Of a DNA stretch of 64,000 bases, positions 23,859-55,700 are shown one piece after another (positions within the stretch are counted from its first letter, which is position 1; each line of letters begins with the position of its first letter). The notes beneath the pieces are model-generated. The model saw only the letters and a program-made list of their open reading frames with translations. It was not told where the DNA came from and searched no databases. The position numbers and the translations under genes were made by a program. Source of the DNA: Ignavibacteriota bacterium. Its GTDB lineage: Bacteria > Bacteroidota > Ignavibacteria > UBA10030. The stretch is taken from positions 195,393 through 259,392 of the forward strand of contig CAWHXW010000002.1 of NCBI GenBank assembly GCA_963833465.1. Direction: 5' to 3'.

Positions 23859-23885
23859 AAGAAATCTCACAAAGGATAATAAGTT

Positions 23886-24176
23886 ATGTTCCCACTATTT
23901 GAATCATTTTATATACTAATTCTTGCCGGGTTCGTTGGATTTGAAGTTATCAAACGTGTAACACCAACGCTTCATACGCCGTTAATGTCTGCAACCAACG
24001 CTATCTCTGGAATTTCATTAGTCGGTTCACTCGTCGCTGCTGGAAGCGATCAATTTGTTAGTCAAATGCTTGGACTCGTAGCAGTGACAGCTGCAACCAT
24101 CAATGTCGTTGGCGGGTTTATGATTACTGAGCGAATGTTGAAAATGTTTAAACGGAAGGAGCGGAAACAGCAATGA
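23886..24176 (+). CDS. pntAB: NAD(P) transhydrogenase subunit alpha part 2 (membrane)
   Basis: It is a 96-aa three-TM protein sitting between pntAA and pntB. Confidence 0.88.
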   Translation: MFPLFESFYILILAGFVGFEVIKRVTPTLHTPLMSATNAISGISLVGSLVAAGSDQFVSQMLGLVAVTAATINVVGGFMITERMLKMFKRKERKQQ

Positions 24177-25549
24177 CAAACTATCCGCTCGAAATTACTT
24201 ACATCATCGCGTCCGTCCTTTTTATTATGGGATTGAAAGGACTCGGTCATCCCGAATCCGCGCGCCGTGGAATGCATTATGCAGAAATTGGGATGCTGAT
24301 GGCAGTTGTCGGAACATTGCTTGGTCAAAATATTGTTACGTGGCAATGGATTCTAATTGGGCTTGTGATTGGATCTGCTATTGGCACTATGATGGCAATT
24401 TTCATGCCGATGACGGCGATGCCCCAACGAATTGCAATTTCGCATGCATTTGGTGCACTTGCCGCAGTACTTGTCGGTATTAATGAATTTATCGTAAAGT
24501 GTTCTGAAATTTCCAGCGGACTTATGGGAGCGCTTGGATTTGAAGTACTCTTCGGTTCGCTTACTGTTACCGGAAGCTTAATGGCATTCAGCAAATTACA
24601 AGGTTTGCTGAGAAGCGAACCGATAACATTCAAAGGACAAAATTTTATCAACATCTCTCTATTTTTTATTACAGTTGGAATGTTTGTTTATCTCGTTTTC
24701 TTTCCGCAAAACACTCTCATCTTTGGCACTATGATTGCACTTTCATTCCTAATCGGCATTTTTATTGTTATGCCGATCGGAGGAGCAGATATGCCGGTTG
24801 TTTTATCGCTGATGAATTCGTACGCGGGACTTGCTGCTGCTGCGACTGGATTTGCCATTAACAATAAAGTGCTCATCATTGCTGGTTCTTTAGACGGTTC
24901 ATCAGGATTTATTCTTTCAATAATTATGAGTAAAGCTATGAACCGATCCTTTGCAAATGTACTGTTTGGCGCCGTCGGTTCTCCGCAAATTGATACATCA
25001 AAACTTCACGAAGATCGGCCTATCACAAAAATTAACGTTGAAGATGCAAAATTTATTCTTGAACAAGCCGATCGTGTTGTTGTTGTTCCCGGATACGGAA
25101 TGGCAGTTGCACAAGCGCAGCATGCAGTTCGTGAACTCAGTGATGAATTAGAGAAACGTGGAACGAAAGTTGAATTCGCTATTCATCCGGTTGCGGGACG
25201 CATGCCCGGACACATGAACGTACTTCTTGCCGAAGCAAATGTATCTTATGATCAATTACAGGAAATGGAAACAATCAACCCAACAATGGATACGGTAGAT
25301 GTTGCAATTGTGATCGGTGCAAACGATGTAGTGAATCCTGCGGCTCGCACAGATAAAGGCAGCCCGATCTACGGCATGCCGATTATTGATGTGGATAAAG
25401 CGCGAACAGTTATTGTGATGAAACGTTCGATGGCAACCGGATTTGCCGGTATCGAAAATCCGCTCTTCTATCAAGAGAATACTAAAATGTTATTCGGTGA
25501 CGCGAAGAATGTCCTACAGCAATTAATTGCGGAGTTTAAGAAGAATTAA
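24173..25549 (+). CDS. pntB: NAD(P) transhydrogenase subunit beta
   Basis: It has a multi-TM N-terminus and a C-terminal NADP(H) domain (PGYGMAVAQAQH, GANDVVNPAA). Confidence 0.95.
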   Translation: MTNYPLEITYIIASVLFIMGLKGLGHPESARRGMHYAEIGMLMAVVGTLLGQNIVTWQWILIGLVIGSAIGTMMAIFMPMTAMPQRIAISHAFGALAAVLVGINEFIVKCSEISSGLMGALGFEVLFGSLTVTGSLMAFSKLQGLLRSEPITFKGQNFINISLFFITVGMFVYLVFFPQNTLIFGTMIALSFLIGIFIVMPIGGADMPVVLSLMNSYAGLAAAATGFAINNKVLIIAGSLDGSSGFILSIIMSKAMNRSFANVLFGAVGSPQIDTSKLHEDRPITKINVEDAKFILEQADRVVVVPGYGMAVAQAQHAVRELSDELEKRGTKVEFAIHPVAGRMPGHMNVLLAEANVSYDQLQEMETINPTMDTVDVAIVIGANDVVNPAARTDKGSPIYGMPIIDVDKARTVIVMKRSMATGFAGIENPLFYQENTKMLFGDAKNVLQQLIAEFKKN

Positions 25550-32947: not shown

Positions 32948-33430
32948 CTATTGTGCCGATGTGTTCTTTCGTTGTAAAATTCTTTTCTTTGAAAAAAAAT
33001 TTTTCAGCAACGCTTCACTTTCTTTATCACAAATTCCTCCTACCACATGGACATTATGATTAAGCCGTCTATCTTCGACAATATTAAAGAGTGTCCCGCA
33101 AGCACCGGCTTTAGGATCGTATGAACCAAAAACAAGCGTTGGAATGCGAGCAAGAATAATAGCACCTGCACACATCGGGCATGGTTCTAATGTGACAAAC
33201 AAAGTACATCGTTCTAATCGCCTTGATTGCAAATGATTTGAAGCAGCAGTAATTGCAATCATTTCTGCATGCGCAGTTGGATCCTGCAATCGTTCTATTT
33301 GGTTAAATCCCCTGCCTATTATTTCCCCTTCATACACAACAATTGCTCCCACTGGTACTTCATCTGCGTCGAAAGCGCGCTGGGCTTCACGGAGAGTAAT
33401 ATTCATCCATTTTTCATATTGGATTGCCAT
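32948..33430 (-). CDS. tadA: tRNA adenosine(34) deaminase
   Basis: It carries the HAEMIAI and PCPMCAGA deaminase zinc motifs. Confidence 0.92.
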   Translation of the reverse strand: MAIQYEKWMNITLREAQRAFDADEVPVGAIVVYEGEIIGRGFNQIERLQDPTAHAEMIAITAASNHLQSRRLERCTLFVTLEPCPMCAGAIILARIPTLVFGSYDPKAGACGTLFNIVEDRRLNHNVHVVGGICDKESEALLKNFFSKKRILQRKNTSAQ

Positions 33431-33517
33431 AAATGCTTATATACTTTTAATATACAGACCCGGTGGAATATTAAAATCGATGCAGTCAATTAATTCGCAT
33501 AGAATGAAGAATATATT

Positions 33518-34081
33518 TTATTTAGCGAAACCTCTCATTGGTATTTCACCGACATTTGAATCAACAGATTCCAGTGTGTATGCACTAACTTTTGATAAAT
33601 CTGATAATGCTGCTATTATTCGATTCACCTCTTCATCTATTGTATCAAGTTGATGTGTTATTTTTGTATTGCCTGCGGCTGCTTTATGTGCAGAGCCCAA
33701 TGTCAGCATAATAATTGATAACGGATTATTAATATGATGTTGTAATCCGCGAGTTACTTCATGAAGTGTTTTAAGTTGTGTTTGCTGAAGCTGCACTTCT
33801 CGTTCAACAATAAGTCTTTGTTCTTCACTTTTGTAAAGTTTTGTCCGCACTTCAATAACTTTCACTAAAGATACAGAGAGTAACCATATAAATGGAAAAG
33901 CATCAAAGCTGCTAATTATATTATCAAGAAGTAAAATATGAGCAATAGGATTTTTCAACTTAGAAAAAAAACGAATAATGCAAAATAAAAGATAAGTGTA
34001 GATGAAGAGTCCGGAAAGGACTGCTGGGTATTTTATAAAAAATTTTTTCGCCTCTTCGTAAATCTTTCTGATAGGATTCAT
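33518..34081 (-). CDS. membrane protein with a stand-alone HisKA/DHp-like domain (no ATPase domain)
   Basis: It has two or three N-terminal TM segments, a coiled stretch and then an H-box-like LQHHINNPLSIIMLTLG. The ORF ends about 70 aa later without N/G1/G2 boxes. Confidence 0.55.
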   Translation of the reverse strand: MNPIRKIYEEAKKFFIKYPAVLSGLFIYTYLLFCIIRFFSKLKNPIAHILLLDNIISSFDAFPFIWLLSVSLVKVIEVRTKLYKSEEQRLIVEREVQLQQTQLKTLHEVTRGLQHHINNPLSIIMLTLGSAHKAAAGNTKITHQLDTIDEEVNRIIAALSDLSKVSAYTLESVDSNVGEIPMRGFAK

Positions 34082-34148
34082 TTTAATTACTCCACGAATG
34101 ATGTTCGATGAGTATCAGCGAATTTAACAGAACAGATTGTAAATATTG

Positions 34149-34222
34149 TGCACCCGGAGGGAGTCGAACCCCCAACCCTCAGATCCGAAGTCTGATGCTC
34201 TATCCAGTTGAGCTACGGGTGC
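34149..34222 (-). tRNA. tRNA-Arg (anticodon TCG)
   Basis: The reverse complement is GCACCCGTAGCTCAACTGGATAGAGCATCAGACTTCGGATCTGAGGGTTGGGGGTTCGACTCCCTCCGGGTGCA. It folds into a 74-nt cloverleaf with a 7-bp acceptor stem, a D stem GCTC/GAGC, an anticodon stem TCAGA/TCTGA with loop CTTCGGA, and a T loop TTCGACT. No CCA is encoded. Confidence 0.92.
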
Positions 34223-34699
34223 ATTGAAATTATTCTATTTCCTTCATTTGATTTTTATTGTGGAGTAAATTAATTTTATTTTTTTTACTCTTGAAGTAAA
34301 AAAAATAAGTACAACCGTTATATGAAACACCTAACAAGAAACTGCTTCCGATCGCTTATCTCTTGACGTTAAAATGTTTGATCTATAATTTTCATCTGTT
34401 CGGAAGCTATTGATTCAAATATACAAAAGGATGTTAGGTGAAACAATATTATATCAAGGAAGAGTTTAATAAATGTTTGAACCGCCAAAAGCACCTGTAG
34501 CCTCTTCGAGTTCGGATAGATGCGATGAATATCGAAAATACTTATGCGCAATCTATTCAGACTACTGACGATAGATTATGCAGGAATAAATTTGCACTGT
34601 TGTTGTTTGTATTCATTTTAGATAGATAGGCAATGCAAGCATCTGCAATTTAAAGTAAAAGATTGTCAAAATATAAAAAACTGATTTTAACTATATTAA

Positions 34700-36157
34700 T
34701 CAAGCTATATAATGCGATGATGCAGTTTCACCGCCTTGTCCTGTCCAATTAGTATGAAAAAACTCGCCTCTCGGTCTATCGACTCGCTCATACATATGCG
34801 CGCCAAAGAAATCGCGCTGTGCCTGTAACAGATTTGCAGGAAGTCTCCTTTGCCGATAACCATCATAGAATACTAATGAAGAACTCATCGAGGGCATTGG
34901 AATTCCTATTTTTACAGCTTTTGCAACAACTTTCCGCCATGATTCTTGACAATTTGCCATGACTTTCTTGAAGAATGGGTCGAGAAGAAGATTTACGAGT
35001 TTTGGATTCTTATCAAATGCTTCTTTAATTTTTTCAAGGAACGTGCTTCGAATAATACATCCTCCACGCCACAAGCTGGCAATTCCGCCATAATTGAGAT
35101 CCCATTTAAATTCTTTTGCAGCTTCTTTCATCAACATATATCCTTGAGCATAAGACGTCAGTTTAGAAGCATACATTGCTCTGCGGATGTCTTCAACAAA
35201 CTCTTTCTTATTACCTGTAATTTTTTTCTTTGCGGGTCCTTTTAAAATCTTTGAAGCTATAACACGCTCATCTTTAATAGCAGAGAGACAACGTGCAAAA
35301 ACGGCTTCCGAAACCATCGTCATTGGTACACCAAGATCAAGCGCTGACACACTTGTCCACTTGCCAGTTCCTTTCTGACCTGCTGTATCGAGAATAAAAT
35401 CTACGACATACTTTTTCTTTTCATCTTTATAATTTAAAATGTCTCGAGTAATTTCAATAAGATAAGAACTTAGTTCACCTTCATTCCAATCTTTAAATAC
35501 TTCACTCATATTTTTATTGCTCATGCCCATGCCTTCTTTCATCATTTGATAACACTCACAAATAAGCTGCATATCGCCGTACTCGATTCCGTTATGCACC
35601 ATTTTAACGAAATGACCTGCACCGTTCCCGCCAACCCAGTCGCAACATGGCGTTCCATCCGCGACCCTTGCTGCAATCGCTTGAAAAATCGATTTTATAT
35701 GCGGCCAAGCTGCAGGTGAACCTCCTGGCATAATTGAAGGTCCGCGTAATGCTCCTTCTTCACCACCTGAGACTCCGGTACCGATATATAGCATCCCTTT
35801 CGACTCCACATATTTTGTTCTTCGCATTGTATCAAGGAAATGCGAGTTACCACCATCAATAATTATATCGCCCGGCAACATGTGAGGGATCAGTTGTTCA
35901 ATAAAATCATCTACAGCTTTTCCAGCTTTCACCATTAACATAATCTTGCGCGGAACTTTTAACGTGGATATAAATTCTTGTGCGGAATGCGCTCCAATAA
36001 TTTTCTTTTCTTTTGCCCGTCCGTTAATGAAGTTATCAACCTTTTCCACTGTCCTATTAAACACTGCGACGGTGAACCCGTGACTTTCAATATTAAGCAC
36101 AAGATTTTCTCCCATTACCGCGAGTCCAATTAGACCAATATCAGCTTTTAGTTCCAC
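34700..36157 (-). CDS. gnd: 6-phosphogluconate dehydrogenase, decarboxylating
   Basis: The N-terminal Rossmann motif GLIGLAVMGENLVLN is present, and the 485-aa length and sequence are Gnd-like throughout. Confidence 0.95.
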   Translation of the reverse strand: MELKADIGLIGLAVMGENLVLNIESHGFTVAVFNRTVEKVDNFINGRAKEKKIIGAHSAQEFISTLKVPRKIMLMVKAGKAVDDFIEQLIPHMLPGDIIIDGGNSHFLDTMRRTKYVESKGMLYIGTGVSGGEEGALRGPSIMPGGSPAAWPHIKSIFQAIAARVADGTPCCDWVGGNGAGHFVKMVHNGIEYGDMQLICECYQMMKEGMGMSNKNMSEVFKDWNEGELSSYLIEITRDILNYKDEKKKYVVDFILDTAGQKGTGKWTSVSALDLGVPMTMVSEAVFARCLSAIKDERVIASKILKGPAKKKITGNKKEFVEDIRRAMYASKLTSYAQGYMLMKEAAKEFKWDLNYGGIASLWRGGCIIRSTFLEKIKEAFDKNPKLVNLLLDPFFKKVMANCQESWRKVVAKAVKIGIPMPSMSSSLVFYDGYRQRRLPANLLQAQRDFFGAHMYERVDRPRGEFFHTNWTGQGGETASSHYIA

Positions 36158-36199
36158 TCCGATTTTCCTTGTTTTATTTATATTTTTCCTGTTGATAAA

Positions 36200-37471
36200 T
36201 TAATTAAACCGTTTTTCATGCGACCACAATCCTAATGCTGGATTTGAGATGTAGAATATTTTTTCCCCATCAAGCATCGTGTTGAAGCCATAAGTAAGTT
36301 TTTCGGGATTATATTTCATCATCATTTGAGACAAGTCAGCATACATGAAGTGGACGCTTTCAATTTCTTGTTTTGTAAGATGACCAGGGCAATATGTTAT
36401 CGAAAAACGGCCTTCTGATGAACCATGAATCAGATGCGCAGCTACACTTAAATTATTTTTTAGATCGTCGGCATTCTTCACATATTGCAATATTTTTTGT
36501 GTCCCAATATACCCGTATTTACGAATGAGCGTATCAATTTTTTTATCTTCGCCAAATTCCTTCAACGCCGGCGCTAAAATGATAAGTTCCCCGTTATCTG
36601 CAATTGCCATACGTGTCCGATAAATGCTTTTGTTGCCAAGCCAGGCACTTTTGAATTCAGAGGGATCAAGATAGACGACAACTTTCTTCAATGGTTCTTC
36701 GATCATTTGGAAATTTACTTTAAGTGATAATGCAGATGCAAGATTAAAACATTCTACATCATCACCTATAAATAAGCCGCGCACTTTTAGCCGGCTATCA
36801 TCTCCGGGTGCAACTACAGTGAGTATATAAATAATAGGCAAGTTTTTAGCAAAATGATCTGATGCATAATTTAAAACACGACGCACTGGATTATCAGCAC
36901 ACCCCATAATACGCTCCATACCGTATACTGCACTGAGAAAATGACTTTTATCAATGCTTTCCGGGCCACCTGTCCCAATAAATATGTTCTTGTTGTAATT
37001 AGCCATTCCTATTACTTCATGAGGAACTACCTGTCCAATAGATAAAATTAAATCATAATCGCCTTCAATTAACAGCTTGTTGACCTGCGCTTTCCACCCA
37101 TAATTTAATTTCCCTGCTGATTGTTGATAAATAAACTCAGTAGGTACTTCGCCGAGTGTTATAATGTCTGTCCGCCAATTATGTTTGCGAAAAAGGCCAA
37201 GGGGTACATTACCAAACATAGTCTTTATTTCGTTTTCGGTCATAGCGGCATGCGTACCGAGCGCTGGAAGAACATCGGTAAGTTTATCATGGTAATATTC
37301 CCACACAAGCCGTGTTAATATGCCAGCCTGTGAATGGTAACGTGTAAAATCTGGCGGGATTGCTAAAACTTTTCTTTTCACACTCAACTTTGCCAGTGCT
37401 TCGTACAGTCCTTTTTTAAGTTCTTCTTCATAAAGAACATCGTTTTCAGAACCTTTATTGTATAGTAACAT
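36200..37471 (-). CDS. LarA-family (DUF2088, nickel-pincer-dependent racemase/epimerase-like) protein
   Basis: Several segments parallel LarA from memory: PPDFTRYHS (compare SSDHTRPVP), ILSIGQVVPHEVIGMANYNKNIFIGTGGPESIDKSH (compare the SHFFAGFSGGRKS region), and NGELIILAP...FG. The length is about 423 aa. No database search was possible. Confidence 0.6.
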   Translation of the reverse strand: MLLYNKGSENDVLYEEELKKGLYEALAKLSVKRKVLAIPPDFTRYHSQAGILTRLVWEYYHDKLTDVLPALGTHAAMTENEIKTMFGNVPLGLFRKHNWRTDIITLGEVPTEFIYQQSAGKLNYGWKAQVNKLLIEGDYDLILSIGQVVPHEVIGMANYNKNIFIGTGGPESIDKSHFLSAVYGMERIMGCADNPVRRVLNYASDHFAKNLPIIYILTVVAPGDDSRLKVRGLFIGDDVECFNLASALSLKVNFQMIEEPLKKVVVYLDPSEFKSAWLGNKSIYRTRMAIADNGELIILAPALKEFGEDKKIDTLIRKYGYIGTQKILQYVKNADDLKNNLSVAAHLIHGSSEGRFSITYCPGHLTKQEIESVHFMYADLSQMMMKYNPEKLTYGFNTMLDGEKIFYISNPALGLWSHEKRFN

Positions 37472-37575
37472 AATATTTGTTTGACTTATAACTTTGAAAA
37501 GAATTTAGCTTATGTAAAGTTTTTTAGTAGATTGTTAAATATTTCATTCTCTAACTTCTCCATCACAATCGAAAA

Positions 37576-38658
37576 TTAACGCTGGATACGCGCCGATTCG
37601 CCTTTGGCAAAAGATTTCACTTGTTCCAAGGTTACCATTGTCGTGTCTCCAGGTGTAGTAGTGAGTAATGCACCATGCGCCCATCCAAGCTTCACAGCTT
37701 CTTCAGGTTCTTCATCTATTAATAAGCCGTAGAACAATCCACTTGCGAATCCATCACCACCGCCCACACGATCCAAAACATCCAGTTCACAGATAGGTGA
37801 AGTATATATCTTTCCATCGATCCATGCTACTGCACCCCAGCTATGTCGATTTGTTGAATGTACTTCGCGTAAAGTCGTTGCAACAATTTTGACATGTGGA
37901 TACTTTGCCACCACTTTGTCAATCATGCTAATGAATGAACTTGGGTCAAGTTTCGACTTTGCTGTCGCTTCCGGGCTGGGGATACCTAAACTCTTCTGCA
38001 GATCCTCTTCATTACCTACTAAAACATCTGCGTTATTTATGATGCGAGTGATTACATCAACCGTATTCTTCTGTCCTCCACGAATATTCCAAAGCTTCTC
38101 TCGGAAATTTAAATCGAAGCTTACGATCGCGCCTGCTTTCTTCGCTGCTTTCATACCCTCAATAATAAGTTCGCCGGTAGATTCAGAGAGCGCTGCAAAA
38201 ATTCCGCCGCTGTGAAACCATCGGACCCCGTCAGCGAAAATAGTATCCCAGTCGAAATCACCAGGCTTCAATTGCGCCGCAGCTTCATTTGATCGATTGT
38301 AAAATACTACAGGAGGACGCACACCTTGTCCGCGATCACTATACACCGCTGCCATGTTGGGACCATTTACACCATTGTGTTTAAAGCGTTTATAGAATGG
38401 TTTTACTCCCATAGCTCGAACACGTTCTGCAATTAAGTCGCCAATCGCATAATCTACCATTGCTGTTACGATGCCTGTGTTCAAGTGGAAACAATCAGCT
38501 AAGTTTGCGGCTACATTAAATTCTCCGCCACTCACATGTATCTGGCATTCAATTGCTTTTCTGAAAGGAATTATTCCAGAATCCAACCGATGAACTAATG
38601 CACCTAACGAAATCAAATCCAAAGCACCTTCCTTATGAATACTCAAACCAATGTTCAT
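37576..38658 (-). CDS. kdgK: PfkB-family sugar/sugar-acid kinase (KdgK-like)
   Basis: The PfkB C-terminal motif DRVGGGDGFASGLFYGL is present, in a hexuronate-operon context. Substrate is not certain (see finding). Confidence 0.65.
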   Translation of the reverse strand: MNIGLSIHKEGALDLISLGALVHRLDSGIIPFRKAIECQIHVSGGEFNVAANLADCFHLNTGIVTAMVDYAIGDLIAERVRAMGVKPFYKRFKHNGVNGPNMAAVYSDRGQGVRPPVVFYNRSNEAAAQLKPGDFDWDTIFADGVRWFHSGGIFAALSESTGELIIEGMKAAKKAGAIVSFDLNFREKLWNIRGGQKNTVDVITRIINNADVLVGNEEDLQKSLGIPSPEATAKSKLDPSSFISMIDKVVAKYPHVKIVATTLREVHSTNRHSWGAVAWIDGKIYTSPICELDVLDRVGGGDGFASGLFYGLLIDEEPEEAVKLGWAHGALLTTTPGDTTMVTLEQVKSFAKGESARIQR

Positions 38659-38703
38659 TATTTACTCCTTTTATGGTCTATTTATTTTCGACCTTTAACT
38701 GCT

Positions 38704-39537
38704 TTATACTCCTGAGTATGCAGAAAATCCACCATCAATAGGCAGTACAATTCCTGTGACAAACTTTGAAGCGGGCGATAACAACCACAATACGGTGCCT
38801 AATAAATCATCGGGTACGCCGAAGCGTGCCATTGGCGTATGATCGAGAATATTTTTACCGCGTGCAGTCAATTCACCTGTCGTTTTATTTGTCAAGAGGA
38901 ATCGATTTTGTTCAGTCAGAAAAAAACCTGGCGCAATTGCATTGACTCGGATGTATGGCGAATATTCCTGTGCCATGTGAACAGCTAACCATTGTGTGAA
39001 GTTGCTTACTGCCGCCTTTGCTGCTGAGTATGCCGGTATACGGGTTAATGGCCGAAAAGCATTCATCGATGAAATATTCAGAATCACTCCTTCTTTTTGC
39101 TCCGCCATTTTCTTCCCAAAAATCTGACTTGGCAATATTGTGCCGATCAAATTTAAATTAGAAACGAACTGCAGCGCCTCTGAAGAAATGTCGAAAAAGC
39201 TTTGATCGGCATTAACTGTAGCTTTTGGATCGTTACCTCCAGCACCGTTGATGAGGCAATCAATACTACCATAAATTGAAAGTACTTTATCTGCCGCTTC
39301 TTGAACTTTCTTTTTATCAATCACATCGATAAAAAATACTTTGTGCTTTCCTTGTGTACCATTTAACGATTGAATTGTCTTTTCACCAAGCGAAACATCA
39401 CGATCAAAAATAACGACATTTGCATTACATCCAGCAAGTGCTTTTGCAATCTCGCCGCAGAGTATACCAGCGCCGCCGGTGATGGCTATTGTTTTGCCGG
39501 TAAAATCATACAGCTTTATTATTTCCTGTAAGTTCAT
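38704..39537 (-). CDS. SDR-family oxidoreductase (UxuB-like fructuronate reductase / mannonate oxidoreductase candidate)
   Basis: It carries TGGAGILCG cofactor motif and the YSAAKAAV catalytic motif. It sits between the hexuronate transporter and the kinase. Confidence 0.7.
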   Translation of the reverse strand: MNLQEIIKLYDFTGKTIAITGGAGILCGEIAKALAGCNANVVIFDRDVSLGEKTIQSLNGTQGKHKVFFIDVIDKKKVQEAADKVLSIYGSIDCLINGAGGNDPKATVNADQSFFDISSEALQFVSNLNLIGTILPSQIFGKKMAEQKEGVILNISSMNAFRPLTRIPAYSAAKAAVSNFTQWLAVHMAQEYSPYIRVNAIAPGFFLTEQNRFLLTNKTTGELTARGKNILDHTPMARFGVPDDLLGTVLWLLSPASKFVTGIVLPIDGGFSAYSGV

Positions 39538-39554
39538 ATTAGAAATCCTTGTGT

Positions 39555-40877
39555 TTAGAATACTTCAACTCGTTCCATTTTTGGAGCTAATACATTAAAA
39601 ATAATCCATGCAACCAGATACGCTGAACTACAAAACAAGAAAATCATAAAATAACCGGTTTCAATAGAACCTATTTCTTTATAATGATCAAGTAACACAC
39701 CTGTAACCTTCGAGATTAGAATTCCACCTAATGCACCTGCCATACCTCCAATACCTGTTACTGAAGCAACCGATTTCTTGGGAAACATATCTGATGTCGT
39801 TGTATAAAGATTGGCAGACCATGCTTGATGTGCAGACGCTGCAAATCCAATAATAAAGATTGTGAACCAATAACAATATTGTCCTAATGCTTGAGCAGCA
39901 GCTATCGGTAATACACATAATGCAAAGATAAGCATGGAAATTCTGCGTGCTTTATATACTTCCCATCCTTTCTTTATCAGGTTGCTTGATAACCATCCGC
40001 CAAAAATACTGCCGAACATAGTCATCGTATATACAGAAGCAATTGGAAGAACGAGATCTGTTTTCGACATACCATACTGTCTATTTAGAAACGAAGGCAG
40101 CCAGAACAAATAGAACCACCAAACTGGATCTGTTAAAAATTTTCCTAAAATAAATGCCCACGTTTGTCTAAACGTAAGCAGCTTAAACCAGTTCACTTTT
40201 TCTTTGTGTTTTTCTTCATTAATAATTTCATCATTATCACTGCAGATATAATTATATTCGTCTTTTATTAATTTTGGATGTCTGCTTGGAATTTCATACA
40301 TCACAAACCAGAAGACCAGCCAAATAAGACCTACAGCACCGGTGAGAATAAACGCCCACTGCCAACCAAAATAGAGAGCAATTAAAGGAACTGTCAATGG
40401 TGCAATAATAGCACCAACATTTGAACCAGAGTTAAAAATTCCAGTAGCTAAAGCTCTTTCTTTTTTGGGAAACCATTCTGCAACAGTTTTTATTGCTGCG
40501 GGAAAGTTACCCGACTCACTGATTCCAAGTACACTACGAGCAGCTATAAATCCAAACGTGCTTCCGGCAAAAGCATGTCCGATTGCTGCAAGACTCCAGA
40601 TAAACAATGACAACGCATACCCAAGTTTTGTCCCGATTTTATCAATAACCCAACCTATACCGAGCATTCCGATTGCATACGAGAGTTGAAAAACAATAAC
40701 AATGTCAGAATAATTTGATTCTGACCATCCGAATAGAGGATCGAGATAATCGTCCTTTAATAGACTGATAACCTGGCGGTCCAAATAATTAACTGTTGTA
40801 GCAAAAAAAACAAGTGTTAAGATGATCCAACGGTAATTTCCAATTCTAACTTTTATTCCATTATTATCAGACATCAT
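39555..40877 (-). CDS. exuT: MFS transporter, ACS/hexuronate (ExuT-like)
   Basis: It is a 12-TM-like protein with an N-terminal NYLDRQVISLLK motif typical of ACS-family MFS transporters, adjacent to uxaC. Confidence 0.7.
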   Translation of the reverse strand: MMSDNNGIKVRIGNYRWIILTLVFFATTVNYLDRQVISLLKDDYLDPLFGWSESNYSDIVIVFQLSYAIGMLGIGWVIDKIGTKLGYALSLFIWSLAAIGHAFAGSTFGFIAARSVLGISESGNFPAAIKTVAEWFPKKERALATGIFNSGSNVGAIIAPLTVPLIALYFGWQWAFILTGAVGLIWLVFWFVMYEIPSRHPKLIKDEYNYICSDNDEIINEEKHKEKVNWFKLLTFRQTWAFILGKFLTDPVWWFYLFWLPSFLNRQYGMSKTDLVLPIASVYTMTMFGSIFGGWLSSNLIKKGWEVYKARRISMLIFALCVLPIAAAQALGQYCYWFTIFIIGFAASAHQAWSANLYTTTSDMFPKKSVASVTGIGGMAGALGGILISKVTGVLLDHYKEIGSIETGYFMIFLFCSSAYLVAWIIFNVLAPKMERVEVF

Positions 40878-40904
40878 TTTTCTCGTTTTGCAATAAAAAT
40901 ATTA

Positions 40905-42317
40905 TTATTTAAAATTGAAATATCGTTTTGCATTGTAATAACAGATATCCTGCACAATACTTCCTATATATTTCAAGTCATTCGGAATTAAACCTTTTTC
41001 CATTTCTGTCCCGAAAATATTACATAATAATCTTCGAAAATATTCATGTCGCGAGTAAGAAAGAAAACTTCGCGAATCTGTTACCATACCTACAAACTGG
41101 CTTAATATTCCCATATTTGAAAGAGCGTCAATTTGCCTTCGCATCCCATCAAGTTGATCGAGAAACCACCAGCTTGAACCATATTGCATCTTGCCAGCCG
41201 TACTGCTATCTTGAAAATTGCCAATCATACTCGCCATCAACTCATTGTCGCATGGGTTGATATTGTAAATAATTGTTTTTGGAAGTCGATTTTGTGAATC
41301 GAGTTTATCAAGCAATTTTGCTAATGGACGTGCAATTTCAAAATCACCTATAGAATCAAAGCCCATGTCAGCACCCAATTCTCGCATCATCCGTGAATTA
41401 TTATTTCGAAGCGCTCCGAAATGGAATTGCTGCGCCCATCTTTTTTCATAATCCATCACTCCTAATTCATATAATATCGCTGATTTGAATTTCAGAATTT
41501 CTTTCTCATCAAGATTCTTTCCCTTGTGCAGTTTTTTGAAAATAAACTTTATCTCCGATTCCGAATAATTTTCCGAATATGGTATTTCTAATCCATGATC
41601 AGAAAGCCGGCAGCCATGCGCATGAAAGTAATCATGACGACTTTTAATAGCAGAAACAAACGAATAATAATCCTTTATATCAATTCCAGAAATAACTTCT
41701 AGCTTATTGATGTAGGAAACGAAAGTATCCACATTTTCCACAGCCATAGCTTTATCTGGACGAAATGTCGGAAGCATCTGAGTAAATCCGTTTCCTCCTT
41801 TTGCGTACGCTTTGTGGTATTCCAAATTGTCTGTTGGATCATCGGTAGTGCAAATAATTTCAACGTTCATGCATTTTAGAATTCCCTGAGTCGAAAAGCC
41901 CGGCATTGATAGTTTCTTATTGCATTTGTTCCATATAACTTTTGCTGTCTTTTCGCTTAGAATTACATTATTGATTCCAAAAGGCCGCCGCAATTCAAGA
42001 TGTGTCCAGTGGTTGAGTGGATTTCGGATTGCTTTCGGCACAGTACGTGCCCACATCTCAAACTTTTCCCAATCCGATGCACTTCCTGTAATGAAATGTT
42101 CATCAATACCGCATGTCCGCATCGCACGCCATTTGTAATGATCGCCATTCAGCCATATCTGTGTGAGATTATCGAATTGTTTGTTCTCAGCAATTTCTTT
42201 TGACGAAAGATGGCAGTGATAATCAATGATAGGTAACGATTCAGCATAGGAATGATAAAGTTCTGATGCGGTCTTCGTTTCAAGTAAGAAATCTTCATGG
42301 ATAAATTTCTTTTTCAT
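40905..42317 (-). CDS. uxaC: glucuronate isomerase
   Basis: The IIDYHCHL motif is present and the ~470-aa sequence is UxaC-like. The ORF-track start at 42332 is TTG, so I prefer the ATG at 42317 (MKKKFIHEDFLL). Confidence 0.92.
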   Translation of the reverse strand: MKKKFIHEDFLLETKTASELYHSYAESLPIIDYHCHLSSKEIAENKQFDNLTQIWLNGDHYKWRAMRTCGIDEHFITGSASDWEKFEMWARTVPKAIRNPLNHWTHLELRRPFGINNVILSEKTAKVIWNKCNKKLSMPGFSTQGILKCMNVEIICTTDDPTDNLEYHKAYAKGGNGFTQMLPTFRPDKAMAVENVDTFVSYINKLEVISGIDIKDYYSFVSAIKSRHDYFHAHGCRLSDHGLEIPYSENYSESEIKFIFKKLHKGKNLDEKEILKFKSAILYELGVMDYEKRWAQQFHFGALRNNNSRMMRELGADMGFDSIGDFEIARPLAKLLDKLDSQNRLPKTIIYNINPCDNELMASMIGNFQDSSTAGKMQYGSSWWFLDQLDGMRRQIDALSNMGILSQFVGMVTDSRSFLSYSRHEYFRRLLCNIFGTEMEKGLIPNDLKYIGSIVQDICYYNAKRYFNFK

Positions 42318-42442
42318 GTTTTTCTCCGGCAATCGAAGTTTATTCTATAAAACGCTACATCATTGATTAAAAACCGTATTCTGATAAAATGATTTTATCC
42401 TGATCTATCGTGGAGATTGATTCCTTACAAAATTTACTTTCA

Positions 42443-42691
42443 TCATTCGGGATTATTGAATAATCGTACATCGTATCGCAATTGTTCTATATATACAACG
42501 GGCGCTATATCTGCCAATAATTTTACATTCTGTGCTGATTTATTTCTCCACAAATTGCAGCATGCCGCCGCAACATTACCCGGCGGGCTTGCTATACGCA
42601 CAAACCGATGTTTTTCCTTCCATTGAATTTTTGCTGCATAACCAAATATGAGTTCTTTTGGATCAGATATCGCTAAGGTTTTATATTTCAT
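42443..42691 (-). CDS. hypothetical 82-aa protein (doubtful)
   Basis: It is the only sizeable ORF in the gap between the URO-D gene and uxaC, on the same strand as both. I recognise no motif in it. Confidence 0.25.
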   Translation of the reverse strand: MKYKTLAISDPKELIFGYAAKIQWKEKHRFVRIASPPGNVAAACCNLWRNKSAQNVKLLADIAPVVYIEQLRYDVRLFNNPE

Positions 42692-42742
42692 GCTTATTTT
42701 TCAAATGGAACAACAAAATATTTTATTTGTCAATGAGCTATT

Positions 42743-43774
42743 TTACGAATAATGTTGAATGGTTTGAATAAATGCATTTATATTTTCCGAGTTAACCCCT
42801 GGCGGCATACCGCCCCCGCATGATAAAATAATCTTCGATTTTTCTTGAAGAGAGTTCAACAGCGCCATAGTCGTCTTCGTTACTAAAGTAACATCGTTGC
42901 TTGCTAAAACATCTCGCGGAGGAATGTTACCGAGAAGAACAACTTTATTTTGTGTCGAATTTTTCAATTCATTAAGTGTAATATCGAAACCCATATTAAA
43001 CAGATTGACGCCTATTTCCGGAAGCAGCGGAGCGCATACTTTACAAGGAGCGTCATTATGCAGAAATTTGATTGACACCTCAGCGTCATACAATTCTTTG
43101 AAATATGGCAATCCGAAAGTACGAAATTCTTCTTCACCTAAAAAACCAATTATATCATCTAACAAAAAAATGCCATCGATGGATGAAAATGTTTCTATTT
43201 GCAGATTCAGCCAGTCTTTCAGATAAACTGTAATCTTCTTTATGAGGTGATGCGCTTTCTCTGGCTGTATCATCATCGTAGTTAGAAATTCCGTCGATCC
43301 CATCAGATAGCTGGCAATATTTAAAGGACCTCGAGCAACGGCAAAACGAATTTTATGTCCGGCCGCTTCAATCTTTGGTTGCGCAAGTTTTAACCGATTT
43401 AACACGAGCGGTAAGAGGCCATCCGTTTTTGGATTCGGCTGTGGAAGCATGTCAATATCATCCACTGATTGAATAATTTTATGCGCATAAGGAAATTCGT
43501 TTTCCGGAAAAACACAGCGTGTTCCAAACGCCGATGGTTCCGTACACATACCGAATTCGGACCAAAACCCAGGAAAATAAATTACATCTGGAAAATCTTG
43601 AAGTGCTTTCAGATTTGCCTTCAACCACAGTTCGTCGTTCGAAAAATAATCAAGAATATTAACACCGTACCAATTTGGCAGCCATGGGCTGTCAATGATA
43701 AAACCTGCAGGTAAAGGATTCAATATTTCTCCATTTATTACTTTCTGAAGAATTTCCCATTGTTGATCTGTCAT
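42743..43774 (-). CDS. uroporphyrinogen-decarboxylase (URO-D) family methyltransferase-like protein (MtaA/MtvB-like)
   Basis: URO-D-like segments are present (ARGPLNIASYLMG, ILSCGGGMPPG). It sits in a corrinoid-protein context rather than a heme-biosynthesis one. Confidence 0.7.
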   Translation of the reverse strand: MTDQQWEILQKVINGEILNPLPAGFIIDSPWLPNWYGVNILDYFSNDELWLKANLKALQDFPDVIYFPGFWSEFGMCTEPSAFGTRCVFPENEFPYAHKIIQSVDDIDMLPQPNPKTDGLLPLVLNRLKLAQPKIEAAGHKIRFAVARGPLNIASYLMGSTEFLTTMMIQPEKAHHLIKKITVYLKDWLNLQIETFSSIDGIFLLDDIIGFLGEEEFRTFGLPYFKELYDAEVSIKFLHNDAPCKVCAPLLPEIGVNLFNMGFDITLNELKNSTQNKVVLLGNIPPRDVLASNDVTLVTKTTMALLNSLQEKSKIILSCGGGMPPGVNSENINAFIQTIQHYS

Positions 43775-43863
43775 TCTACTTATCTTCCAATTTTATTTGC
43801 AATGATATATTCTATTTACAGAATGAAATGTCTTTTGCTAATAATCCAATTCTATGATTTATT

Positions 43864-44629
43864 TTATGTGCGTTCTGCTTTAGCGAATCTGATCACACGA
43901 TACCTGCAGTCCTTCATTCCGCATATATCGCAAGAATAATCGACTCTTTTAACTGTTTTCCCAATACCAATAATACCACTGACAGATTTAATAGGGACCA
44001 TCAACGACGATTCAGTGAGAGTAATTCCACAAAAATTTGCGGGGAGAAATGAGAACAGAAGATGTTGTTCTGACACAGACCAATCGCAGTACCCCGGACT
44101 AAACCTATTTGTTATTTTCAATCCATACATCTTCATACGTTTTTCGATATAATCATGGAGCACGTCAGTTGCTTGATCTACTGTTATTGATGCAACTGTA
44201 TCTATCAAGTAACTTAATGCAGCATCTCCATCGACAAATAATTTCTTTGCCCAGTTTTCCATAGCCGGACCGATTGTACAAACAAAAAGTGCCACTCTCT
44301 CAGATTTCTTAAGTTGCTTAGTGATATTGTTTTGCAAATTAAAAAATTTTCCGCCAGCGAATAATCCATCATTTCGATTTTCTGAATTTCTGACATTTAG
44401 AAGTCTATAACCTGCCTTCAATTTACAATATTTTGGTAGTTGAGATAGAATGTTTTCTATCATCTCTTCGAAATGCACTGGAATGGTACCGGCGGCATAT
44501 CCGAGGTACAGAAACTATTTCACTCTTTTTTATAGTTAAATCTTTTAAGTTGATTTCGATTTCAAAAGTATCATCTGGCAAAGCCAAGGATTCCAATTTT
44601 TGTTCGACTTGAGGAATAGCTTTTTCCAT
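43864..44629 (-). pseudogene. methionine-synthase-type B12 reactivation (AdoMet-binding) domain protein, split by one frameshift
   Basis: The ORF at 43864-44478 carries PGYCDWSVSEQHLLFSFLP...ESSLMVPIKSVSGIIGIG (Met_synt_B12-like). The N-terminal part (MEKAIPQVEQ...KKSEIV) lies in the 44423-44689 ORF frame. Removing one T from GTTTCTG near 44515 joins them into ...SEIVLYLGYAAGTIPVHFEEM. The span is 766 nt (3n+1). The start overlaps the upstream stop (TGATG). Confidence 0.7.
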
Positions 44630-45513
44630 CAGTGAACCCTTATCACTTGAACTATTTTCCGGATATGCGCCGGTGTAGTACCGCAACAACCACCAATAAT
44701 ATTTGCTCCACTCTTAATTAAATCCGGGATTTTTGCAGCTATCATTTCCGGTGTTTCCGGAAATATTGTCTTACCATCCTGATAAACGGGTTTTCCAGCA
44801 TTCGCATGGACAAGAATAGGCGTTAATGGATCGATTGTTCTAATTTCTTTAACTATATCAATCATTTGATCAAATCCATTTCCACAATTTGTCCCGATAA
44901 CAGAAGCACCGGCTTCCTTAACCGACTGAACCATTTCAGCAGGTGAAACCCCCATCATAGTACGGTATTCACCGCTAATAGTTTTCTCAAAAGTAAATGT
45001 GCAAACCACTTCTAATCCAGTAGACTCGCGAGCTGCACGAATCGCGAGACACGCCTCGTCAAGAGCGGACATTGTTTCCACACAAATTGCATCAACTCCA
45101 CCTTTTTGCAGAGCCTTTGCCTGAATAACAAATCCATTATACAAAGTTTCTTCAGAAACTTCTCCCATCATTAAAATTATGCCTGTAGGACCGATTGAAC
45201 CGAGTACGAGATGATCCGTGCCTGCTGCTTCTCTTGAGATGACTGCTGCTGCCTCGTTCAGTTCAGAAGTTCGATTTTGCAGACCATAATGCTCTAATTT
45301 AGATGGACTGGAGCCAAAACTGTTTGTGAGAATTATATCAGCACCGGCATCGATATAACTTTTTGCGATCGCAAGTACGTCAGCGCGATGAGTAATATTC
45401 CACAATTCTGGACATTCTCCAGACTGTAATCCTCGTTGATGCAGAAAAGTGCCCCAAGCACCATCCGAGATGAGGGTTTTTTTATTTTTAAGTGACATGA
45501 GAAGCGAATTCAT
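44629..45513 (-). CDS. homocysteine S-methyltransferase domain protein (MetH N-terminal module-like)
   Basis: It carries SDGAWGTFL at the N-terminus and the zinc-site region GANIIGGCCGTTPAHIRKI. Confidence 0.8.
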   Translation of the reverse strand: MNSLLMSLKNKKTLISDGAWGTFLHQRGLQSGECPELWNITHRADVLAIAKSYIDAGADIILTNSFGSSPSKLEHYGLQNRTSELNEAAAVISREAAGTDHLVLGSIGPTGIILMMGEVSEETLYNGFVIQAKALQKGGVDAICVETMSALDEACLAIRAARESTGLEVVCTFTFEKTISGEYRTMMGVSPAEMVQSVKEAGASVIGTNCGNGFDQMIDIVKEIRTIDPLTPILVHANAGKPVYQDGKTIFPETPEMIAAKIPDLIKSGANIIGGCCGTTPAHIRKIVQVIRVH

Positions 45514-45567
45514 TTTTCTAACTTATCTTTTAAAAAAATATTTTATCTCAAGAAAGAGCTTTCTCAT

Positions 45568-46284
45568 CTATTCTTTAACTGAAGAAATCATACTATCCAA
45601 AATCGCCACCGCCCCTTGAGGATCTCGAGAATATCCATCTGCGCCCATTTTTAAAGCTACTTCCATAGTCAGTGGTGCACCGCCAACAATAATTTTTGTG
45701 GATGGAAATATTGCTTTAATTTCCTGAACCGTTTTCGACATACTGACCATTGTCGTTGTAAGTAATGCACTTATACCAACTACGCAACCCGGATTATTTT
45801 TAATAGTTTCTAAGAATTTTACTGCTTTGACATCGACACCTAAATCAATAACTTCCCAGCCATTGCCTTCGATAACCATTCTAACTAAATTTTTTCCGAT
45901 GTCGTGTAAATCGCCGGCAACAGTACCAAGAACAAATTTCCCTTTTATCTTAATGCTTCCTTTTTTGAAAAATGGTTCAAGATGAGCCATCACAGCGTGC
46001 ATCGCCTTAGCTGCCATTAATAACTCAGGAACGAACACTTCATTTCTACTAAAGCGTTCGCCGATACGCTGCATACCATCATTACATGCCTGTAGAATAG
46101 CATCGGGCCCAATAGCAGATTCCAATGCTTGCCGTGTCAATTCATCTGCCCCTTCCATACCTTTCATATCATTAGGATATGGCGAAACTTTGTTAATCTT
46201 TCCACGCTCAATACACCTGCCTATTTTTTCAGTTAATTCATTCAAAACAATTAACCCTGAGACATCAAAAATAATTTGTTGCAA
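45568..46284 (-). CDS. corrinoid (B12-binding) protein, MtaC/MetH-cap plus Rossmann type
   Basis: The DxHxxG motif is present (GDLHDIGKNLV), preceded by a helical cap domain. The start is TTG. Confidence 0.85.
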   Translation of the reverse strand: MQQIIFDVSGLIVLNELTEKIGRCIERGKINKVSPYPNDMKGMEGADELTRQALESAIGPDAILQACNDGMQRIGERFSRNEVFVPELLMAAKAMHAVMAHLEPFFKKGSIKIKGKFVLGTVAGDLHDIGKNLVRMVIEGNGWEVIDLGVDVKAVKFLETIKNNPGCVVGISALLTTTMVSMSKTVQEIKAIFPSTKIIVGGAPLTMEVALKMGADGYSRDPQGAVAILDSMISSVKE

Positions 46285-52754: not shown

Positions 52755-55700
52755 CGATAAATATAGTATGCTATTATTTATCATTAGTTTTGTATTAATA
52801 TTTCTTAGCGCTGTAATCTATAATATTATTTAAGCAACATTAATTTTTTTGTTTCTGAAAAATTTCCAGCTTGCAATCTATAAAAATAGACACCGCTTGA
52901 GAGTTTATTCCCGTCAAATTGTAATTCATAAGAACCGGATAATTTTTCCTCGTTAACAAGTTTTGATACTTCTTTTCCAAGTATATTGTAAACCGTTATA
53001 TTTACAAAGCTTGTCTGTGGAATTGAATATTTTATTGTGGTACATGGATTGAATGGATTAGGATAATTCTGTGACAAAGAAAATTTTGCTGGAATATCTT
53101 TTGGCATAGAAGTTATGATAGTCCGAGAGAAAGCTAAAGAAAATCGAGTTTCATACTCGCCTGCAAGTAAAAAGATGCGGTACTGCGGATTTAATTTTAT
53201 ATACTGGTTAATACCTCCTGCAGCATCTACTAGATAAATATAAATACCGGCTGGAATCTGTTCAACGTCTCTTGCGTCGAAAGTTATCCATCCATCTTTT
53301 GCTGTTCGGAGGCCAAGCGGAATTATATCTATACTATTAGACGGGAAAGGTACGGCATTTATCGAAAGTTTTTTTGTATCAGGAGTCATTGAATATAAAT
53401 TGGGAACAAGCGTATCTGTATTCATCAGCTTCAATGCATCAAGATCCTTATCGAATAACTGTGTGGCTGAGCTGTCAAAATAAATTACAGCAGGGTCAGA
53501 TGGCGTTCCGTTGTCCACAAAACCGGCAGTAATTCTTAATAAAGGAAATGTATTTCCAACTATAGATTTTAGAAAACCATGAGTTTGATCATTTACTCGT
53601 ACACTATTTGTAACTGCGAGAGTTCCCGTCACCGGATATGTTCCATTAGTAACATGAACAAAAAATCCTTGCATGGAAGGAATAATATTTGTTGCTAACC
53701 CATCACTTGAAACACCATTTATATAAGTGCTATATGTACCGGTATACTGGTCGGTAGCACCTGCTTTGAAGTAATATAATGCGTTATCAATATTCGTCTT
53801 TGTCCATCCACTAGCTGCATTCCAATCGATAGCCGAAGGATACGGGTTGCCTACAAAATTGACTCCCTGTGTGTATGTCTGATTATGATTATATAAAGTG
53901 ATAGACATAGCACCATTGTTCACCACACCTGTGATATTCACTGTTACTGGATTGGAAGAAGAACCAAAGTTTGCAGCATAACCCTGCATTGGATTTAATG
54001 GATTTATAGCCGTTGTATAATTTACCCATCCGGAAATAGGCTGACTATTATTTTGATTGTTTTCGTTATATGCATAGAATGTCGGAAAGGTAGCCGTTAA
54101 ATCTACGTAACTTGAAAATCCATTTACTGTTAATGACTGGAATGGCGAACTGACATATTTGTAACCAAATGCAGAAGGAAGATACCGCTGCATTGTAACA
54201 TTTCCAGTAACCGATCCTGTGCTGCTGCCATCAATCAAAGATGTTTGTGTTGCTGTAGATAGAAGTGTAAGGTTTCCATTCGTGTTTAGCGGTCCATTGC
54301 AAAGCAGGATTCCGCTCAATGACATCATCTGATTATTTAAAATGAGAGTGTTCGTCCTGTTAATCGTCAAATTATTTATGGACGGTGCTGTAGTAAAAGT
54401 ACCATTAGGTATTGTAAAAGCATTGCCTCCAGTATTTCCTGAAGTGCCAAAAAATAAATTCGAACTTGCAGTTGTTGTTATTGTGCCCGAGCCTACGCTG
54501 ATTGGAGTGTTCGAAGTCTGGAACGCAAGTGTATTTGAGCCAACCGAGAGAGCTCCGCTTGTCAACGTAAGTGTACCCGCAACAGTAATAGAATTTATCG
54601 AAAGTCCAGCGCTGTTATTTAGAGATAAATTATTAAAAGTTGTTGAACTGCTTCCGCTTATTGTTTGAGCGCTTGCACCATTAAAGGTGACAGTACCACT
54701 ATTATGAGTAAATGTTCCGCTATTTGAAAAATTACCTACCAGACTCATAGTGCCTGAAGTTGAAGTGAGTGTTCCAGCACTAATTGATAAAGCGTTCAGA
54801 GTTATTGCATTATTGCCAAAACTCAATGTACCTGATCCGGCTTTCGTTAAGCTTTTTGCATTGTCGTTGATTATACCTCCTATTGTAAGTGAACCAGCAT
54901 TCACAGTGATCTGCCGATTTAAATTCAATGATACTGCACCGGAACCTAAATTAAGATTCCATGGTATAGTACCGCTATAAGTGAAATCTGCATTTAGTGC
55001 TAACTGGTAATTGAGAGTAGTAATGTTTGCACCGCTTGTATTATCAATTGTCCCGCCTGCAATAGTAAATGTTCCTGCAGTTGTGCCCAGCGCATTAGAA
55101 TTATTTATATTAAGAGTTCCGGCATTCAAAGTAGTGCCGCCTGTATAAGTATTGGCGAAATTCATGGTAAGCGCACCACTATTCTGTTTTGTAATATTAG
55201 TAGTACCCGTTCCATTACTTATTGCAACGGTGCTTTGCGTTACCGACCCAATATTGTTAAATGAAATAGTATTAGTTCCAGCAACACCACCTGTTATACC
55301 ACCTGAAATAGTGAGAGCATTTGTACCTGTAGTCGCTACTTGTGTTATTGATAATGGCTGACTAAATGTAATAAGTCCGCTGAATGTTGAAGCATTAGCC
55401 GTATTTCCGCCAATACTATATCCACCTGAATTTGAATTATTTGAAACTGTTACTGTTCGTGCAACTGTGAAAGCTCCTCCTGTTAACAAAGCAACTGCAT
55501 TGTTGCTTGTGTTTCCATCACCAAGCGTTATTGCTGATGTAGCATTCCCAAATGCTCCAGCAGAACCACTTGGTGCATTTGCTCCAGCTATCAGCATACC
55601 TTGACTCACAGTCGTGGTACCAGTATAAGTATTTGTTCCACTCAAAATCAATGTACCTGTGCCCGTCTTAATAATGTTGCCTGCGGTTGCAGCACCTATT

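Follow-up and report, generated by a model that had tools for sequence, protein, structure and literature searches.

How a bacterium disposes of D-mannonate when its hexuronate operon encodes neither mannonate dehydratase (UxuA) nor 2-keto-3-deoxy-6-phosphogluconate (KDPG) aldolase (Eda) is the question raised by a six-gene locus from an Ignavibacteriota bacterium. The locus comprises six co-directional minus-strand open reading frames (ORFs) at positions 34700-42332 of a 64-kb stretch of contig CAWHXW010000002.1 (assembly GCA_963833465.1), referred to here as the window. It encodes an uronate isomerase (UxaC), a permease of the major facilitator superfamily (MFS), a UxuB-type short-chain dehydrogenase/reductase (SDR), a PfkB-family kinase, a LarA homologue and a 6-phosphogluconate dehydrogenase (Gnd). 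We consider it likely that these genes form a self-contained catabolic operon, which converts D-glucuronate to ribulose-5-phosphate (Ru5P) and CO2 without mannonate dehydratase and KDPG aldolase.

In the proposed shunt, the MFS permease would import glucuronate, UxaC would isomerize it to fructuronate, and the UxuB-type SDR would reduce fructuronate to D-mannonate with consumption of NAD(P)H. The LarA homologue, a member of LarAH group 18 (LarAH18) and a candidate nickel-pincer-nucleotide (NPN) enzyme, would then invert C2 to give the gluconate configuration. The PfkB kinase, assigned below to clade K0, would phosphorylate C6, and Gnd would convert 6-phosphogluconate to Ru5P, CO2 and NADPH. 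Since the SDR spends NAD(P)H and Gnd returns NADPH, the upper pathway would be redox-neutral. The substrates, direction and order given here are those that we infer for the encoded enzymes.

The epimerization step is assigned to the LarA homologue (36200..37471, 423 aa), which contains a Lar_N domain (PF09861, E = 6e-13) and matches the NF052594 model ('nickel-dependent putative hexonate epimerase') with 653.7 bits against an equivalog cut-off of 500. The next-best family, represented by the malate-racemase model (MAR), scored 59.5 bits and the lactate-racemase model 33 bits, in agreement with a preliminary description of this DNA that had suggested an epimerase of mannonate and gluconate. The protein belongs to a GntE-like branch and does not cluster with lactate or malate racemases, an outcome that the same description had named as one that would count against its proposal. 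Its best match in the PDB was 4nar, the apoprotein of Thermotoga maritima TM0442/GntE2 (E = 1e-35), and 2yjg was matched with E = 2e-4. We aligned the window protein with Lactobacillus plantarum LarA, two group-18 proteins, one group-19 protein and T. maritima GntE2. The equivalents of D72, R75, H108, H174, K184, H200 and K298 are all kept in the window protein and form invariant columns of this alignment; they include the catalytic His108 and His174, the NPN-tethering Lys184 and the nickel ligand His200, as tabulated in Dataset S2 of PMC7583248. The protein also shows the exact group-18 signature of that dataset, with E and V at positions 175/176, W, L and N at 294/295/297, and S-AA-LIH-S in helix alpha14. 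It shares 64% sequence identity with ACP_2683 from Acidobacterium capsulatum (group 18), 30% with GntE2, 29% with group 19 and 21-25% with LarA.

These sequence features place the window protein fully within LarAH group 18; the only other record found for it is a 3.2-kb fragment. On the same features, group 18 stands as sister to the proven gluconate 2-epimerases and outside the GntE groups 19, 20 and 15. Of the GntE-type substrate residues reported in PMC7583248, LarAH18 shares the E-V loop and Trp294 and differs at positions 295, 297 and 362. Previously, LarAH19 (GntE1) and LarAH20 (GntE2) have been shown to convert D-mannonate to D-gluconate in vitro, and a role as hexonate epimerase was hypothesized for group 18 too (Desguin et al. 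2020, PMC7583248). A survey from 2024 added eukaryotic GntE and left group 18 out of its tests (PMC11770544). LarAH18 is thus predicted to be an NPN-dependent putative hexonate 2-epimerase acting from D-mannonate to D-gluconate, or on the same pair of compounds as 6-phosphates.

The genomic neighbourhoods of the epimerase provide the second line of evidence. A scan with one genome per species revealed at least 584 relatives, and the best 80 loci were analysed by our own ORF calling and clustering, with annotation of the cluster representatives. The best match in this genome collection was at 79%, the window's own contig not being among the genomes. Linkage was counted in 42 loci whose flanks extend to 6 kb or more on either side, taking as neighbours the genes on the same strand within 6 kb; these and the other co-occurrence counts given here are raw, without correction for phylogeny or horizontal transfer, which tempers the weight they lend to the proposed shunt. 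A gnd gene was found near LarAH18 in 39 of the 42 loci (and, where the downstream sequence was long enough, in 60 of 68), a UxuB-type SDR likewise in 39, a PfkB kinase in 29, UxaC in 21 and UxaE in 16. Eda was present in 13 of these loci and canonical KdgK in eight, with UxuA in only two; UxuA occurs in 7 of the 160 epimerase- and kinase-centred loci taken together. The host range covers Ignavibacteriota, Bacteroidota, Planctomycetota, Acidobacteriota, Lentisphaerota and others, and the Bacteroidales hosts include the cultured genera Alkaliflexus, Natronoflexus, Geofilum and Carboxylicivirga. Pectinesterase, GH28, KduI/KduD, TRAP transporters and transketolase recur near LarAH18. As computed from these loci, the epimerase-gnd pair is a conserved module within pectin/hexuronate loci, and its linkage extends across phyla.

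An epimerase beside gnd could also act on another hexonate, such as L-gulonate/L-idonate or altronate, or run in reverse from gluconate to mannonate for UxuA, the gnd linkage then reflecting gluconate/idonate catabolism. The annotation of group 18 goes no further than 'putative hexonate epimerase' (NF052594; PMC7583248), the epimerase reaction is reversible, the MFS permease is nearest to hexonate transporters, and the authors of PMC7583248 themselves doubted that GntE1 has mannonate as its native substrate. However, the constant partners of LarAH18 are the UxuB-type mannonate oxidoreductase, UxaC and/or UxaE, and pectin genes (GH28, pectinesterase, KduI), whereas UxuA, which the reverse direction would require, is almost never present and no IdnD-type or IdnO-type set was seen in the surveyed loci. 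We regard a different substrate or the reverse direction as quite improbable.

The remaining genes of the operon were identified by profile computations, which agree with the preliminary description for all six genes; curated family cut-offs were passed by all operon proteins except the MFS permease and the kinase. UxaC (40905..42332, 475 aa) matches PF02614 with E = 9e-204 and the equivalog model NF002794 with 626 bits against a cut-off of 387; its true start is probably the ATG at 42317, which has GGAG 6 nt upstream, rather than the TTG at 42332. The permease (39555..40877, 440 aa; MFS_1, E = 1e-59) belongs to the ACS family, its top NCBIfam subfamily being TIGR00893 (ACS / D-galactonate transporter type) with 232 bits, under the cut-off of 395. 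Orthologues with 71-79% identity hold the same position in loci L041, L053, L081 and L115, and the protein is presumed from its sequence to be an ExuT-like importer of hexuronate or hexonate. The UxuB-type SDR (38704..39537, 277 aa; fructuronate reductase / D-mannonate oxidoreductase) scores 365 bits with NF006132 (cut-off 281), and the NADP-dependent decarboxylating Gnd (34700..36157, 485 aa) 763 bits with TIGR00873 (cut-off 427).

Recomputed from the ORF coordinates, the intergenic gaps in uxaC to gnd order are 27, 17, 45, 104 and 42 nt, identical to those reported earlier. A consensus scan for promoters and terminators (34000-43000) gave the same counts as expected from shuffled sequence, and an Rfam scan of 33400-43000 identified only a tRNA-Arg, with no riboswitch in the 5' region of the operon. 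Gene spacing and conserved synteny are the two grounds on which we infer co-transcription of the six genes.

The PfkB-family acid-sugar kinase (37576..38658, 360 aa; PF00294) is the enzyme on which a more conventional explanation would turn. If it were a 2-keto-3-deoxygluconate (KDG) kinase and uxuA and eda lay elsewhere in the genome, the operon would serve the ordinary Ashwell pathway, with the LarA homologue and gnd as functionally unrelated neighbours. Within the window, tblastn searches with representatives of UxuA, Eda, KduI, UxaE, canonical KdgK, PdxB-like, PFK-like, HAD, transketolase and LacI proteins matched only the operon's own uxaC and kinase, and no uxuA, eda, kduI or uxaE was found. 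Pfam scans of 50 window ORFs found no UxuA, Eda, LarB, LarC or LarE. The earlier observation that uxuA and a KDPG aldolase gene are missing from the operon and the window thus holds, although the view of the genome is limited to these 64 kb. In favour of the Ashwell reading, the widest gap in the operon, 104 nt, parts the kinase from the LarA homologue, and KDG kinases are nearest to the kinase among both solved structures and NCBIfam models. The best PDB match of the kinase is T. maritima KDG kinase (2afb, 163 bits), and it keeps the Arg and Tyr motifs common to the four acid-sugar kinase clades described below.

A scan centred on the kinase gave at least 504 species matches, of which 80 loci (L081-L160) were analysed, and all PfkB kinases of the 160 loci were sorted into four clean clades: K0 (86 members, the window type), K1 (29 members), K2 (19 members) and K3 (11 members, orthologous to T. 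maritima KDG kinase TM0067, 2afb). Clade K3 scores 344 bits against 2afb, more than twice the score of the window kinase. With the kinase half of NF041633 the window kinase reached 250 bits, compared with 330-343 for K2 and 511 for K3. K0, K1 and a PFK-family protein are mutually exclusive, and each of them accompanies the epimerase and gnd. K2 and K3 are likewise mutually exclusive but accompany Eda and KduI, and they occur alongside K0 or K1. This two-kinase pattern points to K2 and K3 as the KDG kinases and to K0, K1 and the PFK-like protein as the kinase of the epimerase-Gnd branch.

K0 itself has gnd within 2.5 kb in 54 of the 80 kinase-centred loci. Its epimerase partner is LarAH18 in 29 of them and a group-19 (GntE1-type) LarA homologue, 51% identical to Trad_0660, in 24; the remaining 27 contain no LarA homologue within 8 kb of K0, and 13 of these 27 are still gnd-adjacent. 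LarAH18 and the group-19 homologue were found together in none of the 160 loci, so that they behave as interchangeable parts. K0 is also unusually conserved, being 78-84% identical across at least eight phyla, which include Ignavibacteriota, Bacteroidota, Acidobacteriota, Chloroflexota, Verrucomicrobiota and Myxococcota.

On these comparisons the window kinase is not a KdgK orthologue and is very unlikely to be a KDG kinase, in line with the earlier suggestion, and an Ashwell pathway with unrelated neighbours is highly improbable: K0 scores well below K3 against the T. maritima KDG kinase, shares loci with the clades that accompany Eda and KduI, and is exchangeable with K1 and the PFK-like kinase beside a LarA homologue and gnd, while LarAH18 and gnd stay linked in many phyla and UxuA is rare. 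K0 is instead predicted to be a gluconate (or mannonate) 6-kinase feeding Gnd. The Y-x-R, DLNxR and GGGD motifs are kept in all four clades, K0 and K1 differing in one strand and an insertion, and comparison of these motifs with KdgK structures does not separate gluconate, mannonate and KDG as substrates. Beyond Valk et al. 2020, the literature searched yielded no kinase of the PfkB type for gluconate or mannonate, no work on 6-phosphomannonate and no pectin study dealing with LarA/DUF2088.

Within the proposed shunt, the epimerase could act before or after the kinase. We favour the order proposed for Thermotoga, with the epimerase acting on free mannonate first and a gluconate kinase second, because proven GntE enzymes act on free acids, because K0 is tied most tightly to gnd, and because K0-gnd pairs exist without a nearby epimerase. 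In the order found in Lactobacillus suebicus the net shunt would be the same, but the PfkB protein would be a mannonate 6-kinase and LarAH18 a 6-phosphomannonate 2-epimerase passing 6-phosphogluconate to Gnd. This is the only order that has been demonstrated biochemically, in cell extracts in which a mannonate kinase is followed by a 6-phosphomannonate 2-epimerase (PMC6978723).

Several observations weigh against our preferred order, and some of them against the entire shunt. For free mannonate, the proven enzymes have high KM values (120 mM for GntE1 and 17 mM for GntE2, PMC7583248). Group 18 departs from the GntE-type residues of groups 19 and 20, with L for T at 295, N for A/G at 297 and S for R/K at 362, and it has an HGSSEGRF loop that is conserved in and peculiar to this group. 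In 42 of the 160 loci, LarAH18 or LarAH19-like genes have as flanking genes PdxB-like paralogues, whose family acts on a phosphorylated 2-hydroxy acid; these neighbours hint at phosphorylated intermediates. The genes larB, larC and larE were not found among 50 ORFs of the window scanned with Pfam, and group 18 is usually not clustered with larBCE (PMC7583248). The two genomes that carry the closest LarAH18 have epimerase and gnd paired at one locus and SDR and kinase at another (L002 and L136 in OY969585.1, L001 and L138 in the metagenome-assembled genome fen_1287), 1.5 Mb apart in the complete chromosome.

Against phosphorylation as the first step stand the activity of both GntE1 and GntE2 on free mannonate (PMC7583248) and the closer association of K0 with gnd than with any epimerase; the 13 K0-gnd loci in which no LarA homologue is near fit a gluconate kinase better. 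At the tabulated signature positions group 18 also has no extra basic residues, and fewer than groups 19 and 20, which may speak against a phosphate-binding pocket. Taken together, we regard the L. suebicus order as possible but rather unlikely. A more specific form of it, which we put forward tentatively and consider unlikely, is that K0 is a dedicated D-mannonate 6-kinase and LarAH18 a 6-phosphomannonate 2-epimerase, that these are the gene types behind the two 'novel reactions' of Valk et al., and that the PdxB-like neighbours use these phospho-hexonates as well. This would make LarAH18 the first nickel-pincer enzyme known with a phosphorylated substrate. No later mention of either activity, mannonate kinase or 6-phosphomannonate epimerase, was found in the literature searched.

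The PdxB-like paralogues adjoin LarAH18 in 21 loci and directly precede a group-19-like epimerase in another 21. With 432 and 405 bits (L033:7897-9039 and L091:3025-4182), they score just under the PdxB cut-off of 434 (4-phosphoerythronate dehydrogenase family), and their substrates could be phosphorylated hexonates of the 2-hydroxy or 2-keto type. In 15 loci the PfkB kinase beside LarAH18 is replaced by the PFK-family protein (pyrophosphate (PPi)-phosphofructokinase subfamily NF010675, 366 bits), usually accompanied by a 296-aa HAD-like hydrolase; these loci include L016, L021, L029, L033 (4419-5699), L036, L039, L042, L048 (9108-9998), L061, L070 and L073. For the PFK-family protein, a role as a non-homologous hexonate kinase is conceivable, as is a connection to PPi-dependent glycolysis.

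The part of the preliminary description that proposed a route from mannonate through gluconate and its 6-phosphate to Ru5P gains from the tight cross-phylum linkage of LarAH18 to gnd, to a UxuB-type reductase and to a kinase other than KdgK; its sequence of epimerase and then kinase is less secure, since L. suebicus phosphorylates first. The same description had called the route a possible bypass in an operon without uxuA and kdgA, and its reading as a replacement for an absent KDG route is not supported: related loci hold Eda, KdgK and KduI beside the module. Because many relatives carry KduI, KduD, KdgK and Eda next to it, the module would be a branch alongside the KDG route and not necessarily a replacement, and 'parallel branch' is the safer wording than 'bypass of a missing pathway'. 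The closest syntenic relatives (L082, L097 and L115) have the arrangement KduD-Eda-KduI ... SDR-K0-K2-LarAH18-gnd. Unlike them, the window operon lacks K2, Eda and KduI jointly, which fits the two-kinase logic. Other loci (L099, L111 and L114) contain a bare LarAH18-gnd-K0 triad amid housekeeping genes. Since the two pairs are split in the genomes with the closest epimerases, the six-gene operon of the window represents a consolidated arrangement. LarAH18, like K0, is unusually similar across phyla (65-80% identity), and this conservation points to strong constraint, to a recent horizontal spread of the module, or to the two combined.

The operon is flanked by unrelated housekeeping genes, with a corrinoid methyltransferase/split MetH-like set upstream and tRNA-Arg, TadA and RF genes downstream. 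Immediately upstream, between uxaC and a URO-D/MtaA-like methyltransferase, an 82-aa ORF (42443-42691, minus strand) resembles a fragment of MtaB (E = 7e-11), matching positions 296-341 of the 460-position Pfam profile. Upstream lie separate Met_synt_B12, homocysteine S-methyltransferase and B12-binding ORFs, and 42443-42691 together with 42743-46284 (minus strand) resembles a corrinoid methyltransferase / MetH-like set that has been split, possibly with the remnant of a gene. Downstream, tRNA-Arg(TCG) lies at 34148-34222 on the same strand as the operon, 478 nt beyond gnd, and the next ORF (33518-34081, minus strand, 187 aa) has only a HisKA domain and may be a truncated histidine kinase.

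Elsewhere in the window, genes for a proton-translocating transhydrogenase, pntAB, are located at 22727-25549 (plus strand), about 9 kb from the operon. The first subunit (dI) is apparently split by a frameshift into ORFs of 262 aa (22727-23515) and 105 aa (23541-23858, the C-terminal end of dI), after which follow PntAB at 23886-24176 and PntB at 24173-25549, both on the plus strand. Valk et al. invoked PntAB as the coupling between NADH and NADPH steps in the shunt (PMC6978723). A protein of 1927 aa at 52826-58609 (minus strand) has seven PATR repeats and a C-terminal sorting domain of the type IX secretion system; its gene has a G+C content of 0.46 against approximately 0.38 elsewhere in the window. 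This protein supports an origin from the FCB group (Ignavibacteriota/Bacteroidota).

The proposed shunt would yield pentose phosphate instead of pyruvate and glyceraldehyde 3-phosphate, shifting the balance of fermentation in organisms that degrade pectin and hemicellulose. Its redox neutrality would be an advantage for organisms fermenting these polymers, a point made by Valk et al., and a redox-neutral shunt is also of interest for the engineering of galacturonate-fermenting strains (PMC6978723). With the numbers of species representatives found for the epimerase and the kinase, the version with group 18 and PfkB is a widespread form, present in many anaerobic and soil phyla. The window operon is its cleanest minimal example, with no genes of the KDG branch intermixed, and would be a good template for studies of specificity and reaction order.

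Compared with known systems, the window encodes a variant, with a group-18 epimerase and a PfkB kinase, of an already published hexuronate-to-pentose-phosphate shunt. The preliminary description had considered such a route not to be established as a pathway, but it was reconstructed for Thermotoga in 2012-13, and a route from mannonate through 6-phosphogluconate to Ru5P has been demonstrated in L. suebicus (PMC7583248, PMC6978723, PMC3750489). At the protein level the window epimerase does not differ from LarAH group 18 (Desguin et al. 2020; NF052594). For the neighbours of this group, Table S1 of PMC7583248 lists SDR at 36%, 6-phosphogluconate dehydrogenase at 32%, a ribokinase-family kinase at 16%, and MFS and UxaC at 12% each; the present, larger survey lifts the linkage to 93% for gnd and 93% for the SDR and resolves the kinase clades of the module.

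With the Ashwell (isomerase) pathway, UxaC-UxuB-UxuA-KdgK-Eda, the operon has in common its opening pair of reactions, by UxaC and a mannonate oxidoreductase, together with an importer of the ExuT-like kind. That pathway ends with a dehydratase and an aldolase, whereas the window operon, in which UxuA and Eda are missing and the kinase is not a KdgK orthologue, ends with an epimerase and Gnd. The hybrid isomerase-phosphoketolase pathway of L. suebicus resembles our proposal in running from mannonate to 6-phosphogluconate and, via Gnd, to Ru5P without UxuA, KdgK and Eda and in a redox-neutral manner. Its genes were left unidentified (Valk et al. 2020, PMC6978723); homologues of gluconokinase are the kinase candidates and no LarA-type epimerase was implicated, whereas in the window the genes are visible.

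The closest counterpart is the Thermotoga shunt uxaE-uxaD-gntE-gntK-gnd, which Rodionova 2012 proposed according to PMC7583248 and PMC6978723. In T. maritima the operon aldH-pelB-gnd-uxaRED-gntEK was described as 'required for galacturonate catabolism' and is induced 2- to 5-fold on pectin (Rodionov et al. 2013, PMC3750489). The Thermotogota locus in our survey (L162), with the order GH28-gnd-GntR-UxaE-SDR-GntE2-FGGY kinase, agrees with the published gnd-uxaRED-gntEK, and its kinase scores 372 bits with gntK_FGGY. As in the window, the Thermotoga cluster brings together, in a pectin/hexuronate setting, an SDR fructuronate reductase, a LarA-family C2 epimerase (GntE2 = TM0442 = LarAH20, PDB 4NAR), a kinase and Gnd. 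However, its epimerase belongs to group 20 and shares 30% identity with the putative group-18 enzyme, and its kinase is the FGGY gluconokinase GntK, for which the PfkB protein of clade K0 is a non-homologous replacement. The Thermotoga cluster also contains UxaE and a regulator, whereas the window operon has neither and would be entered through UxaC, from glucuronate, and the MFS importer.

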